Shown: positions 49,971 to 60,910 of the stretch, piece by piece
How the letters are laid out: each line of letters opens with the position of its first letter
Position numbering within the stretch: position 1 is the first letter of the stretch
Assembly (NCBI GenBank): GCA_038208735.1
Contig: JBBQYL010000001.1
Location: 489-64,488, forward strand
Source: Burkholderiales bacterium
Lineage (GTDB): Bacteria > Pseudomonadota > Gammaproteobacteria > Burkholderiales > Burkholderiaceae_C
DNA length: 64,000 nucleotides
Direction of reading: 5' to 3'
Program-made: the position numbers and the translations under genes
Notes under the pieces: generated by a model
Told to the model about the DNA's origin: nothing
The model's database searches: none
What the model saw: only the letters and a program-made list of their open reading frames with translations

Positions 49971-51065
49971 TCACGAGCGCGGCATGCGGCGTGCCGCCCG
50001 CGCCGGGGCGCTGGTGGAGTCTCGCACGATCAGCTCGTGCGGCAGCACGCGCTGCACCGCCGCGATGGTGCGCGTGCCCGGCGTGCCCTGCACGGTGGGC
50101 GTGCCGATCAGCAGGTCGACGGCCGCGCGTGCCATCGCCACCGTGGGCTGGCGCATCGTGGTGAGTGGCGGCCACACCAGGCCGCTGGCGGGCGAATCGT
50201 CGAAGCCGGCGATGGCCAGGTCGTCGGGGATCGCCAGCCCCTGGCGCTGGGCGGCGGCCAGCACGCCCAGCGCCATGTCGTCGTTGCTGGCGAACACGGC
50301 GGTGGGATGGTGGCGCAGCTTGAGCAACTGGTGGGTGGCGGCCACGCCCGATGCGAACTGGAAATCGCCGTCGATCACCAGTTCGGGCGCGATGTCCACG
50401 CGCGCCGCCTTCATCGCCTTGACGAAGCCCTGCTCGCGCAGCGCCGACGCGGCCTGGTCGGCGGCACCGCGGATGAACGCGATGCGGCGATGGCCCAGGC
50501 TCAGCAGCAGGTTGGTGATCTCCTCGGCCGCGTGCACGTCGTCCATGCGCACGCTGGGCATGTCCTTGCGCTGGCGCGCGGGCGATACGAGCACCGTGGG
50601 CGTGCCGCTGTCGTGCAGCGTCTTGAGCACGTGTGGGTTGTCGCACAGCGGCGGCGTCAGGATCATGCCGTCGGGCCGCAGCGTGGACACCATCCGGTGC
50701 ACCTGCTCGCCCAGGTCGTGCGCATCGTTGTCCATCGACTCCACCACCAGGTGGTAGCCCGCCTCGCGGCAGCGCATCGTGGCGCCCTGCTGCACGCCCG
50801 AGACGAAGGCCGCGCTGGGGTCGAAGTACAGCAGGCCGATGAGGAACGAGCGCGCGCCTGCCAGGCTGCGCGCCGACTGGCTGGGCCGGTAGCGCAGGTC
50901 GGTCATCACCTGCAGCACCTTGGCGCGGGTGTCGGGCCGCACGCCGGCCTCGTTGTTCATCACGCGCGAGACGGTCTTGATCGACACGCCGGCCACCTCG
51001 GCCACGTCGCTGATGGTGGTGGAGGCGGCCGGCGGCGTGGCCGATGGCGTGCGGGGGGTCGCCAT
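49971..51065 (-). CDS. LacI-family transcriptional regulator (copy 2)
   Basis: TISDVAEVAGVSIKTVSRVMN, YRPSQSARSLAG, AVFASNDDMALG. Start overlaps the halogenase stop (TGATG). Confidence 0.95.
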   Translation of the reverse strand: MATPRTPSATPPAASTTISDVAEVAGVSIKTVSRVMNNEAGVRPDTRAKVLQVMTDLRYRPSQSARSLAGARSFLIGLLYFDPSAAFVSGVQQGATMRCREAGYHLVVESMDNDAHDLGEQVHRMVSTLRPDGMILTPPLCDNPHVLKTLHDSGTPTVLVSPARQRKDMPSVRMDDVHAAEEITNLLLSLGHRRIAFIRGAADQAASALREQGFVKAMKAARVDIAPELVIDGDFQFASGVAATHQLLKLRHHPTAVFASNDDMALGVLAAAQRQGLAIPDDLAIAGFDDSPASGLVWPPLTTMRQPTVAMARAAVDLLIGTPTVQGTPGTRTIAAVQRVLPHELIVRDSTSAPARAARRMPRS

Positions 51066-52639
51066 CAGGCGGCGCTCCGTTCGGGCGTACCGGTCGGCAC
51101 GGCGCCGCGCACGCACATCGCCTCCACCAGCGCGCGGTGGTCGGGCAGGTCGGCCGCCGCGCGGCGCGCCACCTGGGCGATCATCGCGAACTCCAGGCGC
51201 GCCTCGGCCGCCCGCGGCCATGCGGGACGCGCGCGCGCCAGGTCGGTCGGATACCCCATGCCGTACAGAACGTACTGCCAGCTGGAGGGCGGGTACATCT
51301 CCAGGTCGGCGATGAAGTCGAGCCGGTGCGGCGGGCGGCAGCGCCAGCGCGCCAGCAGGTCGCGCAGCGTGGGCGTCCACGAGGCCGGGTCGGCGTTGTC
51401 GCGCCAGAACGCGGTGTCGTCGCGCCGCGTGAGCGCATAGTGCAGCTTGAGGAAGTCGACGATGCGCTCGAAGCGCGCGCGCATCTGCTCGTTGAACGCG
51501 TGGGCGACCGGCGCGAGGTTGCCGTCGGCGGGCAGCAGGAAGCCGATCAGGTAGGCGGCCGCCTCGATCAGGCCGATGCCCGAGCTCTCCAGCGGTTCCA
51601 GGAAGCCGGCCGACAGGCCCACGGCCACGCAGTTGCCGATCCACTGGGTCTCGCGGTAGCCCACGTCCAGCTTCAGCGCGCGCGGTGTCAACCCGTTGGC
51701 GGCCGGGCCGATGTAGCGGCGCAGCGTGCGCTCGGCGGCGGCGTCGTCGGCGTGGCGGCTCGAATAGACGTAGCCGATGCCGCGTCGACGCTGCAGGCCG
51801 ATGTCCCAGGTCCAGCCGGCCTCGTGGGCGGTCGAGATCGTGTACGACGGGATCGGCGTGTCGGACGCGGCGTAGGGAACCTGCATCGCCAGCGCGCGAT
51901 CGACGAACAGCACGTCGTTCAACGGCTTGCGCTTCGCGCCCAGCGCATCGCCGATCAACGCGGCGCGGAAGCCGGTGCAGTCCACGTACAGGTCGGCGCT
52001 GATGGCCCCGCGTTCGAGCGTGACGACGGCGGCGATGTGGCCGTCGTCCTCGCGCAGCTCGACGCGTTCCACCGTGGCGATCACGCGCTCCACGCCCAGC
52101 GACTGCGCGTGCGTGGCCAGCAGCGTGGCGAACTTGCCGGCGTCGAAGTGGTAGGCGTAGTTCATGGGCCCGAGCCAGTCGCCATCGCTGGCGCGCTTGG
52201 GCGCGCGAGCGGCGTCGGCCACGTGCTGCTGCATCGACACCGCGTTGGCGAACGCCCGCGGCGCGCCGTCGGCCGCACCCGCCTCGCCCAGCAGCCAGTA
52301 AGGCATCAGCTCGGGCGCGCCGGGGCGCTGGCTGGGCGGGTTGAACGGATGGAAATAGCGCTCTCCGGCGCGCGTCCAGTCGACGAAATTCACGCCCTGC
52401 TTGAACGTGGCGTCGCACTCGCGCACGAAGCGCGCCTCGTCCAGGCCGATGGCGTTGAGCGTGCCGCGGATCGAGGGGAAGGTGCCTTCGCCCACGCCGA
52501 TGATGCCGATGTCGCTGGACTCCACCAGCGTCACGCGGATGCCGCCCGCGGCCGTGCCCAGCGTGCGCGCAAGAAAAGCCGCGGTGAGCCAGCCGGCGGC
52601 GCCGCCGCCGACGACGAGGATGTGCTCGATGGGTTTCAT
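51065..52639 (-). CDS. Flavin-dependent tryptophan-halogenase-family protein
   Basis: GGGAAG, IGVGEGT, ATFKQG (catalytic Lys), YAYHFDA, GWTWDIG (WxWxI), GFLEPLESSG (catalytic Glu). Confidence 0.92.
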   Translation of the reverse strand: MKPIEHILVVGGGAAGWLTAAFLARTLGTAAGGIRVTLVESSDIGIIGVGEGTFPSIRGTLNAIGLDEARFVRECDATFKQGVNFVDWTRAGERYFHPFNPPSQRPGAPELMPYWLLGEAGAADGAPRAFANAVSMQQHVADAARAPKRASDGDWLGPMNYAYHFDAGKFATLLATHAQSLGVERVIATVERVELREDDGHIAAVVTLERGAISADLYVDCTGFRAALIGDALGAKRKPLNDVLFVDRALAMQVPYAASDTPIPSYTISTAHEAGWTWDIGLQRRRGIGYVYSSRHADDAAAERTLRRYIGPAANGLTPRALKLDVGYRETQWIGNCVAVGLSAGFLEPLESSGIGLIEAAAYLIGFLLPADGNLAPVAHAFNEQMRARFERIVDFLKLHYALTRRDDTAFWRDNADPASWTPTLRDLLARWRCRPPHRLDFIADLEMYPPSSWQYVLYGMGYPTDLARARPAWPRAAEARLEFAMIAQVARRAAADLPDHRALVEAMCVRGAVPTGTPERSAA

Positions 52640-52745
52640 GAGGCTCGTCTCCAGCGCGGTGGCGGCGTGTGCGCCCCGTCGTTTGTCGGTGCGCGGCGAC
52701 GTCTCGGCATTTACCCGTAGACGCTCGCAGCGCTTCTTATAGCGA

Positions 52746-59794: not shown

Positions 59795-59797
59795 GCG

Positions 59798-60910
59798 ATG
59801 GCAGAACTTCAATTGCAGGGCCTGCGCCGCACCTACGGGAACGGCGTCAACGCGGTGGACGGCATCGACCTCACGGTGGCCGCGGGCGAGTTCATGGTGC
59901 TGGTGGGCCCGTCGGGCTGCGGCAAGTCGACGACGCTGCGCATGATCGCGGGGCTCGAGGACATGAGCGCCGGCCGCATGTTCATCGGCGGCGTCGACGT
60001 CACCGACGTGCCGCCGGCCGAGCGCGGCGTGGCCATGGTGTTCCAGAGCTACGCGCTCTATCCGCACATGACGGTGGCCGAGAACATGGGCTTCGCGCTG
60101 AAGATCGCGGGCCGCTCGAAGCGCGACATCGACGCCGCCGTGCGCCGCGCCGCCGAGTCGCTGCAGCTCGAGGCGCTGCTCGACCGCAAGCCGCGCGCGC
60201 TGTCCGGCGGACAACGCCAGCGTGTGGCCATCGGCCGCGCGATCGTGCGCGAGCCCAAGGTGTTCCTGTTCGACGAGCCGCTGTCCAACCTCGACGCCTC
60301 GCTGCGCACGCAGATGCGCCTGGAGATGGCGCGGCTGCACGAGCGCCTGGGCGCCACCATCATCTACGTCACGCACGACCAGGTGGAGGCGATGACGCTG
60401 GGCGACCGCATCGCCGTCTTCAACGCGGGCCGCATCGAGCAGGTGGGCACGCCGGGCGACGTCTACAACCGGCCGGTGAACCGCTTCGTGGCGGGCTTTC
60501 TCGGCTCGCCTCAGATGAACTTCCTGCCGGCCGTGGGCGAACTCGACGCCGCCGGCCCGGCCCTCCAGGTGCCCGGCGCCGGCCGCCTGGCGCTGCCCGT
60601 CGACTGCACCACGCCGCTGGCCGACGTGCACGCGCTGGGCGTGCGCCCGGAACACTGGATGATGACGCCCGGCGAAGGCACCGACGGCCTGCACGCCGCC
60701 ATCGACCGCGTGGAGTGGCTGGGCGACGTGACCCTGGTGCACTGCCGCCTGACCGGCCGCGACGCGGCCAATGCCGACACCGGCACGATCAGCGTGAAGA
60801 CCGTATGGCCCGGCAGCGACGCGCTGCCGCGCGGCATGCCGGTGCGCCTGCAGGTGCGGCCGAAGGACCTGATGCTGTTCGACGCCCAGGGGCGCGCGCT
60901 GGCGGCGTAG
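59798..60910 (+). CDS. Sugar ABC transporter ATPase (MalK/MsmK-like)
   Basis: GPSGCGKST, VFQSYALYPHM, LSGGQRQRVAIGRA, FDEPLSNLDA, YVTHDQVEAM. Confidence 0.96.
   Translation: MAELQLQGLRRTYGNGVNAVDGIDLTVAAGEFMVLVGPSGCGKSTTLRMIAGLEDMSAGRMFIGGVDVTDVPPAERGVAMVFQSYALYPHMTVAENMGFALKIAGRSKRDIDAAVRRAAESLQLEALLDRKPRALSGGQRQRVAIGRAIVREPKVFLFDEPLSNLDASLRTQMRLEMARLHERLGATIIYVTHDQVEAMTLGDRIAVFNAGRIEQVGTPGDVYNRPVNRFVAGFLGSPQMNFLPAVGELDAAGPALQVPGAGRLALPVDCTTPLADVHALGVRPEHWMMTPGEGTDGLHAAIDRVEWLGDVTLVHCRLTGRDAANADTGTISVKTVWPGSDALPRGMPVRLQVRPKDLMLFDAQGRALAA

Follow-up and report, generated by a model that had tools for sequence, protein, structure and literature searches.

A 64-kb stretch of a Burkholderiales genome (contig JBBQYL010000001.1; approximately 70% G+C), which is referred to as the window in the following, contains a gene encoding a flavin-dependent halogenase, which lies back to back with an operon encoding a TonB-dependent receptor (TBDR), an ATP-binding cassette (ABC) sugar importer and a glycoside hydrolase family 1 (GH1) beta-glucosidase. 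The analysis suggests that this is probably a LacI-controlled locus for the scavenging of beta-gluco-oligosaccharides, and that the halogenase is a genuine member of the regulon, in which it would perform an aromatic halogenation linked to foraging. A gene map based on the G+C content of codon positions and on Pfam (Table 1) agrees with the first-pass annotation of this DNA, which had described a TBDR-ABC-GH1 operon; Pfam and NCBIfam confirm its components and identify the product of the last gene as a MalK/UgpC-type ATPase. The range covered by that annotation, 49971-60910, extends exactly from the stop codon of lacI to the stop codon of the ATPase gene. Metagenome runs with matching sequences originate from glacier, ice and sediment.

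The regulatory link between the halogenase and sugar uptake can be followed across related genomes. A scan of one genome per species, which was probed with the window proteins, yielded 80 orthologous loci with halogenases of 63-89% identity, which belong to Sphaerotilaceae-type Burkholderiales, the Oxalobacteraceae and the gammaproteobacterium Nevskia. The receptor gene is the divergent immediate neighbour of the halogenase gene in 75 of the 80 loci. The five exceptions comprise three contigs that end early, one locus in which the GH1 gene runs straight into the halogenase gene, and Nevskia, which has a major facilitator superfamily (MFS) transporter-halogenase arrangement with the receptor gene 5 kb away. 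In most loci, a GH1 gene is found within 10 kb of the halogenase gene; the inner-membrane transporter is either of the ABC or of the MFS type, and the repressor varies in orientation and type. All 75 spacers shared by halogenase and TBDR genes contain LacI-type boxes, of which two types can be distinguished. Type A boxes (TGACAnCGnTGTCA) occur in 30 spacers, 29 of them with at least two boxes, and the respective loci are exactly those encoding an orthologous LacI of at least 52% identity, plus one contig ending before the repressor position. None of the other 45 spacers contains a type A box, and the density of these boxes is 59 in 37 kb of spacer sequence versus 5 in 1429 kb elsewhere. Type B boxes (TGAAAnCGnTTTCA) are present in 45 spacers, 43 of which have at least two boxes; their number reaches four, with a phasing of 21 bp, and in 20 type B loci a nearby repressor is 31-36% identical to the window LacI. 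Since all shared spacers keep LacI-type boxes, the type of which differs by lineage, co-regulation appears to have outlasted a change of operator, with the halogenase promoter carrying predicted sugar-repressor boxes in both lineages. Among the sequence-based arguments, this two-lineage pattern is the strongest evidence that the halogenase belongs to the sugar regulon, and the divergent pair with its boxes in 75 of 75 complete orthologous loci upholds the earlier claim that the halogenase is wired into such a regulon.

Two further observations concern the boxes themselves. In several Oxalobacteraceae (L012, L015, L022, L029, L035 and others), the TGAAAnCGnTTTCA boxes in the spacer upstream of the halogenase gene form arrays of three or four with a strict 21-bp period, which is uncommonly regular for multiple operators. 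In Nevskia soli (L080), perfect type A boxes (TGACAGCGCTGTCA) are located at 18966 and 20061 upstream of the receptor gene, and the LacI protein is only 46% identical; the module may have been transferred together with its operator type.

In the window, the spacer between the two operons contains an inverted repeat with arms of 16 nucleotides each (52759-52774 and 52784-52799), which are 94% complementary and separated by a gap of 9 nucleotides. The repeat holds two mirror-image, palindromic LacI-type boxes of 14 bp with a central CG, which are 23 bp apart from centre to centre and whose sequences, AGACAACGCTGTCA and TGACAGCGTTGTCA, are the only matches with at most one mismatch in the 64-kb window. 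The symmetric double operator that had been proposed to lie between the halogenase and TBDR operons is thus confirmed by an inverted repeat and a box pair unique in the window. A consensus scan of the spacer found two promoter-like sites compared with 0.1 expected, one per strand, and each predicted -35 hexamer overlaps one LacI box. The halogenase and lacI genes are linked by a TGATG overlap of stop and start codon (51067-51063), which supports the translational coupling claimed before; the junction is retained in six of the seven closest relatives, the seventh having a GTGA overlap, and is limited to this closest clade. The regulatory mechanism predicted from these elements is clear in outline, namely a LacI-controlled switch of two operons.

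The first-pass annotation had also referred to LacI proteins in the plural, and a second paralogue is indeed encoded in the window, outside the range considered at that time. It is 59% identical to the first LacI, has an identical recognition helix (SIKTVSRVMN) and is also present in the relatives L001, L003, L005 and L006. No operator-like box was found upstream of this second lacI gene. Because it lacks a box of its own and shares the recognition helix, the second paralogue may act on the same double operator, perhaps in response to a different effector. The second lacI gene is followed by a gene for a GNAT acetyltransferase (48234-48668, 4-nucleotide overlap) and a DUF6159 gene (48693-49544).

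The halogenase matches the Pfam family Trp_halogenase (PF04820) with an E-value of 1.6e-129 over residues 7-466. Its best matches in the PDB, all over the full length, are 9LU2 (1.6e-120) and 2PYX (3.4e-116), with 9LTB within 1e-115 to 1e-120; these three are closer than BrvH (6FRL), Xcc4156 (6Y1W) and the true tryptophan halogenases. Full-length homology to the group C structures, including 9LUQ, ranges from 1e-77 to 1e-120. The closest sequence relatives are the group C or "indole-type" halogenases (BrvH/Xcc4156), and the nearest named relative, with 84% identity, is found in Scleromatobacter humisilvae (Burkholderiales). An alignment with PrnA from the prnABCD cluster of Burkholderia pyrrocinia (32% identity) shows that the FAD motif GxGxxG (G11-G-G-A-A-G16) and the catalytic residues K80 and E351, which correspond to PrnA K79 and E346, are invariant in 81 orthologues. 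The same holds true for W276, W278 and I280, the counterparts of PrnA W272, W274 and I276. The FAD motif, the catalytic Lys and Glu and the WxWxI motif are therefore intact, as had been noted before; however, the sixth residue of the WxWxIP motif (W276-T-W278-D-I280-G281) is a glycine instead of a proline in all 81 orthologues. This WxWDIG variant is shared with 2PYX, and 9LU2 and 9LTB have WxWDIA. The group-C-like motifs GTFPSI and HPFNP are present and the Trp4 motif is absent. Furthermore, the segment corresponding approximately to PrnA residues 448-455, a clamp that helps to hold the amino-acid part of free tryptophan, is removed by an eight-residue deletion in the window halogenase and in six other TBDR-linked homologues that were aligned. 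Based on these sequence features, the protein is very probably an active halogenase for a substrate other than free tryptophan.

No protein of the module is better conserved than the halogenase. Its median identity amounts to 67%, compared with 61% for the TBDR and 58% for GH1; among 61 loci, its conservation exceeds that of the receptor in 59 and that of GH1 in 47. Because its catalytic residues are invariant and because it is better conserved than receptor and GH1, the halogenase is under strong selection, probably for catalysis. The likely translation start is the ATG at 52639; an open reading frame (ORF) of 561 amino acids starting at 52750 was rejected, as the ATG at 52639 has the ribosome-binding site GGAGAC and fits the N-termini of the homologues. 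NCBIfam matches to QhpG and LodB, flavoproteins that modify protein tryptophan, are weak and far below the cut-offs, and were not used as evidence.

Several components of the locus point to the sugar that is taken up. The binding protein resembles CebE, which binds cellobiose and cellotriose, and has its best PDB match with 8BFY, which is annotated as "cellobiose-binding" (6.6e-34). The GH1 enzyme scores 555 bits against the beta-glucosidase (BGL) equivalog TIGR03356, the cut-off of which is 478; it contains both catalytic motifs, NEP and ITENG, and lacks a signal peptide. Orthologous loci in other genera additionally encode a secreted GH9 enzyme with a CelD_N domain, a GH3 enzyme with an Exop_C domain, a glucokinase and MFS transporters. 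The receptor does not pass the cut-off of any siderophore-receptor equivalog in NCBIfam. Because of the CebE-like binding protein, the GH1 equivalog match and the GH9, GH3 and glucokinase genes in the orthologous loci, the locus is most likely devoted to the scavenging of cellobiose, cellodextrins or related beta-glucan oligosaccharides and not of aryl glucosides. Homology, together with the GH9, GH3 and glucokinase genes of the relatives, suggests that the transported ligand would be cellobiose or cellotriose.

Taken together, the following model can be proposed. The TBDR would carry the cello-oligosaccharide over the outer membrane, the CebE-like ABC system, for which the operon supplies a MalK-type ATPase, would import it into the cytoplasm, and the cytoplasmic GH1 enzyme would cleave it to glucose. 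In the absence of the inducing sugar, LacI bound to the mirror-image boxes would shut both back-to-back operons at once, as each -35 element overlaps one of the two boxes, and the sugar would open both. Since lacI follows the halogenase gene in translational coupling, LacI would at the same time regulate its own production. With sugar present, the cytoplasmic halogenase would draw FADH2 from a housekeeping flavin reductase and modify an electron-rich aromatic compound other than free tryptophan, either a small molecule of the indole or phenol type or a peptide-bound residue. Such a reaction would match the behaviour of BrvH and Xcc4156, which brominate indole but not tryptophan in vitro and whose native substrates were reported to be unknown (PMC5945002, PMC7336383, PMC8269204).

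A number of points weigh against this model. Regulation and catalysis are deduced from sequence: the promoters are consensus matches, and repressor binding, induction and enzymatic activity are predictions. Electrophilic halogenation works poorly on sugars, and the neighbouring genes encode neither an aromatic substrate nor a halide transporter or a flavin reductase, which leaves the proposed chemistry without an evident target. An AlphaFold2 prediction based on 14 close orthologues resulted in a poor model with a mean pLDDT (predicted local distance difference test) of 52. In ice metatranscriptomes, nearly identical contigs span the genes for the halogenase, LacI, the TBDR, the binding protein and GH1, though with low depth; DNA may be present in these shallow contigs. 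A region of high depth at 59849-60622 was rejected as a sign of expression, since it is best explained by cross-mapping of conserved ABC-ATPase motifs.

The target of the halogenase can be narrowed down further by a look at its wider family. Among distant homologues with 35-55% identity, which are encoded on annotated plasmids and secondary replicons, the receptor gene is immediately adjacent in six of seven loci inspected, in line with the earlier statement that Trp-halogenase-like genes often sit beside TonB receptors in carbohydrate loci. The neighbouring enzymes vary and include beta-glucosidase, GH2, GH3, GH95, GH43, alpha-galactosidase and beta-galactosidase, which places these homologues in loci for galactosides, fucosides and other glycans. 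In many cases the loci additionally contain SapC and cupin genes, for instance with the homologues of Niveispirillum, Catenovulum, Pseudoalteromonas and Novosphingobium. Judged from gene neighbourhoods, it is the receptor that constantly accompanies the halogenase family, rather than any one glycan or aglycone. We therefore infer that the role of the halogenase is connected with receptor-mediated foraging on glycans as a whole and not with the products of GH1. Natural fusions were detected among the distant homologues (P0135, P0134, P0173, P0185, P0195, P0200 and P0243), in which the halogenase is joined either to SapC or to a C-terminal domain of about 300 amino acids with an HxD...H motif, whose best match among solved structures is the alpha-ketoglutarate/Fe oxygenase 9VKM "MicC" (3.4e-21). 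These fusions suggest that halogenase, SapC and alpha-ketoglutarate/Fe oxygenase act on one substrate. An apparent TBDR-halogenase fusion (P0236) was disregarded, since it probably results from faulty gene calling. A tblastn search of the window and the 80 orthologous loci detected neither SapC nor oxygenase domains, and the literature yielded no experimental study of a receptor-linked halogenase.

Of the alternative explanations, the one that survives best, though it is unlikely, assumes that the halogenase is a maturation enzyme, which modifies a tryptophan or another aromatic residue in a protein or peptide of the uptake system, such as the receptor precursor or a partner. This would explain why the family tracks the receptor regardless of the glycan and why the clamp for free tryptophan is missing. 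Those who solved the structures of BrvH and Xcc4156 raised the possibility of a peptide substrate (PMC7336383), and SapC and the alpha-ketoglutarate/Fe oxygenase domain, to which homologues are fused, are protein- or peptide-modifying partners according to Iyer et al. 2010 (PMC2938197). However, a candidate peptide gene is missing at the locus, SapC and oxygenase occur neither in the window nor in the 80 loci, and a cytoplasmic enzyme would need to act before export.

The next alternative, which is improbable, was proposed in the first-pass annotation and places the halogenase downstream of GH1: the beta-glucosidase would free an aromatic aglycone (indoxyl or a phenolic compound) from aryl or indolyl beta-glucosides, and the halogenase would modify or detoxify it. 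GH1 enzymes often accept aryl beta-glucosides, and relatives of the halogenase act on indole in vitro. Moreover, halogenase and beta-glucosidase are encoded in one operon in several lineages, with the gene orders GH1-halogenase with a gap of 2 nucleotides (L040, 8676-11578), halogenase-GH1-MFS (L010, 10001-14411) and, in Sphingobium yanoikuyae pKN1, TBDR-halogenase-beta-glucosidase with a 4-nucleotide overlap (L081, 6500-12782). Nevertheless, the CebE-like binding protein and the GH9 cellulase-type, GH3 exo-glucanase and glucokinase genes of the orthologous loci point to cellodextrins, which have no aglycone, and homologues also adjoin TBDRs in galactosidase, GH2, GH95 and GH43 loci, where no aromatic aglycone is expected. 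With a cellodextrin-type locus and the receptor as the shared partner, the aglycone proposal is not supported.

The first-pass annotation had alternatively suggested a non-halogenating redox step. In this case, which appears more doubtful still, the protein would have lost its halogenating activity and would act as a flavin monooxygenase or oxidase, or have a structural or regulatory role, in glycoside catabolism. The WxWxIP motif, which is thought to block monooxygenase activity, ends in glycine instead of proline, and these bacteria are not known to make a halogenated natural product; however, none of the 81 orthologues deviates in the lysine, the glutamate, the two tryptophans or the isoleucine, 2PYX-type relatives share WxWDIG, and BrvH and Xcc4156 are active halogenases in vitro. 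A redox step without halogenation thus agrees poorly with halogenation residues that are absolutely conserved. Neither this proposal nor the aglycone proposal has been refuted by experiment.

It is very unlikely that the halogenase helps to produce a halogenated siderophore-like metabolite which is taken up by the neighbouring TonB receptor, as in the published interpretation of TonB-receptor/SapC/JmjC/halogenase neighbourhoods (Iyer et al. 2010, PMC2938197). In the window, the receptor gene is the first of an operon that has LacI boxes and encodes a sugar ABC importer and GH1, the receptor stays below the siderophore equivalog cut-offs, and the window lacks genes for a non-ribosomal peptide synthetase (NRPS), a polyketide synthase (PKS) or any other biosynthetic enzyme. 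Hardly credible is a historical accident without functional link, as the pairing and the LacI boxes persist over two Burkholderiales families and a gammaproteobacterium despite changes in operator type, transporter and gene order. A foraging-linked role of the halogenase, with either a small molecule or a protein as the target, is thus ranked first, followed by aglycone modification, siderophore formation and, finally, a non-catalytic role.

Extended to the whole class, the data allow the tentative suggestion that BrvH-class halogenases are active accessory enzymes of TonB-receptor glycan uptake in proteobacteria, which act either by halogenating a residue of a protein or by producing a small halogenated cofactor or signal on which foraging relies. 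If this were true, flavin-dependent halogenases would gain a role in primary metabolism or envelope biogenesis beyond natural products, and the two-gene hal-lacI operon would represent its minimal form. Hundreds of clusters of proteobacterial "tryptophan halogenase" genes adjoin TonB receptors rather than antibiotic clusters. The locus described here is a stripped-down case with one halogenase, no SapC or cupin and a defined operator, for which cellobiose is the likely inducer; its architecture recurs in relatives that are available in culture, namely Scleromatobacter humisilvae, Roseateles and Mitsuaria. The best conservation within the module and the retained control by sugar repressors argue for a selected function tied to polysaccharide scavenging. 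Finding this function would explain a large and currently mis-annotated family, could reveal halogenation in the carbon cycling of soil, freshwater and glacier bacteria, and would steer biocatalysis to the true substrates.

The coordinates of the locus are compiled in Table 1. Within the receptor operon, the spacer downstream of the receptor gene has a folding energy of -62.3 kcal/mol (z-score -5.56), and the last of its three hairpins is followed by CCUUUUCC. Judged from this predicted fold, the spacer could act as an attenuator or partial terminator or as a transcript stabiliser, thereby setting the ratio of receptor to importer. Rfam revealed no riboswitch or other known RNA between 49000 and 61500. 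On the other strand, hal, lacI and gfa probably form one transcript with the GFA gene in third place; in the close relative L001, the GFA gene is absent at the matching position and a DUF6159 gene directly follows lacI. A Pfam search of the 57 called genes and the gap ORFs of the window detected no NRPS, PKS, prnBCD-like or flavin reductase gene, as had been stated for NRPS, PKS and flavin reductase in the first-pass annotation. Beyond the locus, the window encodes a ProQ/FinO-domain protein (60964-62439, minus strand) whose C-terminal tail is long and consists of Pro/Arg/Gly/Asp-rich repeats (PRTDRPQG-like units). A HicB-like antitoxin ORF (17167-17583, plus strand) and an AraC-type regulator (approximately 17633-18700, minus strand) were recognized from the translations alone and fall in a stretch that was passed over by the codon-bias gene caller.

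Table 1. Features of the halogenase-receptor locus (window coordinates)
Feature	Position	Strand	Details
Second LacI paralogue	47197-48237	+	outside the range of the first-pass annotation
GFA-family gene, 132 amino acids	49555-49953	-	PF04828, zinc-binding; starts 17 nucleotides past the lacI stop; ribosome-binding site AGGAGA
LacI/GalR-family repressor, 364 amino acids	49971-51065	-	N-terminal HTH (PF00356) and periplasmic-binding-protein-like effector domain (PF13377, Peripla_BP_3)
Flavin-dependent halogenase, 524 amino acids, BrvH/Xcc4156/2PYX class	51065-52639	-	PF04820; without signal peptide
Divergent spacer between halogenase and TBDR genes, 252 bp	after 52639, before 52892		
Promoter-like site, hal-lacI operon	52746-52775	-	-35 ATGACA (52775-52770), -10 TATGAT ending at 52746; consensus match only
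Symmetric double LacI-type operator (predicted)	52759-52799		box 1 52761-52774, box 2 52784-52797
Promoter-like site, TBDR operon	52783-52811	+	-35 TTGACA (52783-52788), -10 CATCAT ending at 52811; consensus match only
TonB-dependent outer-membrane receptor, 812 amino acids	52892-55330	+	PF07715 and PF00593; signal peptide and plug
Intra-operon spacer, three GC-rich hairpins	55331-55446	+	folding energy -62.3 kcal/mol
Periplasmic sugar-binding protein of ABC importer, CebE-like	55447-56694	+	SBP_bac_1, SBP_bac_8; PDB 8BFY
ABC permease 1	56681-57598	+	BPD_transp_1
ABC permease 2	57585-58418	+	BPD_transp_1; 14-nucleotide overlap with permease 1
Cytoplasmic GH1 beta-glucosidase	58427-59794	+	PF00232 (7.6e-144); TIGR03356
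MalK/UgpC/MsiK-type ABC ATPase with TOBE domain	59798-60910	+	Pfam and NCBIfam

PrnA and RebH are tryptophan 7-halogenases of antibiotic pathways; enzymes of this type are encoded in biosynthetic gene clusters, usually together with a flavin reductase. They have the same fold and catalytic residues (K79, E346, WxWxI) as the window halogenase, which differs from them by the deletion of the 448-455 insertion, the absence of a biosynthetic cluster and of a partner flavin reductase, and the control by a sugar repressor. The group C proteins BrvH (6FRL), Xcc4156 (6Y1W), 2PYX (a structural-genomics protein of Shewanella frigidimarina), 9LU2, 9LTB and 9LUQ resemble the window halogenase in having an intact FAD motif, the lysine and the glutamate, and no clamp. 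These proteins have been studied as biocatalysts, whereas the window halogenase has a defined context, known here from the DNA sequence, which consists of a cellodextrin regulon and a LacI double operator.

With regard to sugar uptake, the CebR-CebEFG-BglC system of Streptomyces, which works together with MsiK, handles cellobiose and cellotriose. Like this system, the window encodes a LacI-family repressor, a CebE-like binding protein, two permeases, a GH1 enzyme and a MalK/MsiK-type ATPase. In contrast to the Streptomyces system, the locus belongs to a Gram-negative bacterium, a TBDR gene heads the operon, the ATPase gene is part of it and the operator sequence is different; the Streptomyces Ceb system is not known to contain a halogenase. 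As described by Blanvillain et al. 2007 (PMC1790865), the CUT (carbohydrate utilization containing TBDR) loci of Xanthomonas and aquatic proteobacteria combine the gene for a receptor with those for an inner-membrane transporter, a degradative enzyme and a regulator. The window locus shares this composition, with TBDR, ABC importer, GH1 and LacI all adjacent, and the halogenase is a fixed extra member; halogenases are not mentioned in the main text of PMC1790865. A neighbourhood of TonB receptor, SapC, JmjC-cupin and tryptophan halogenase genes was described by Iyer et al. 2010 (PMC2938197), who predicted a halogenated siderophore-like product; no other interpretation based on comparative genomics was found in the literature. 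As in that neighbourhood, the halogenase gene of the window adjoins a TonB receptor gene; however, the window and the 80 loci lack SapC and cupin genes, and the setting is sugar catabolism. The arrangement of halogenase and receptor has thus been noted before, and what is new here is a minimal case of it with a defined LacI operator and a cellodextrin context.

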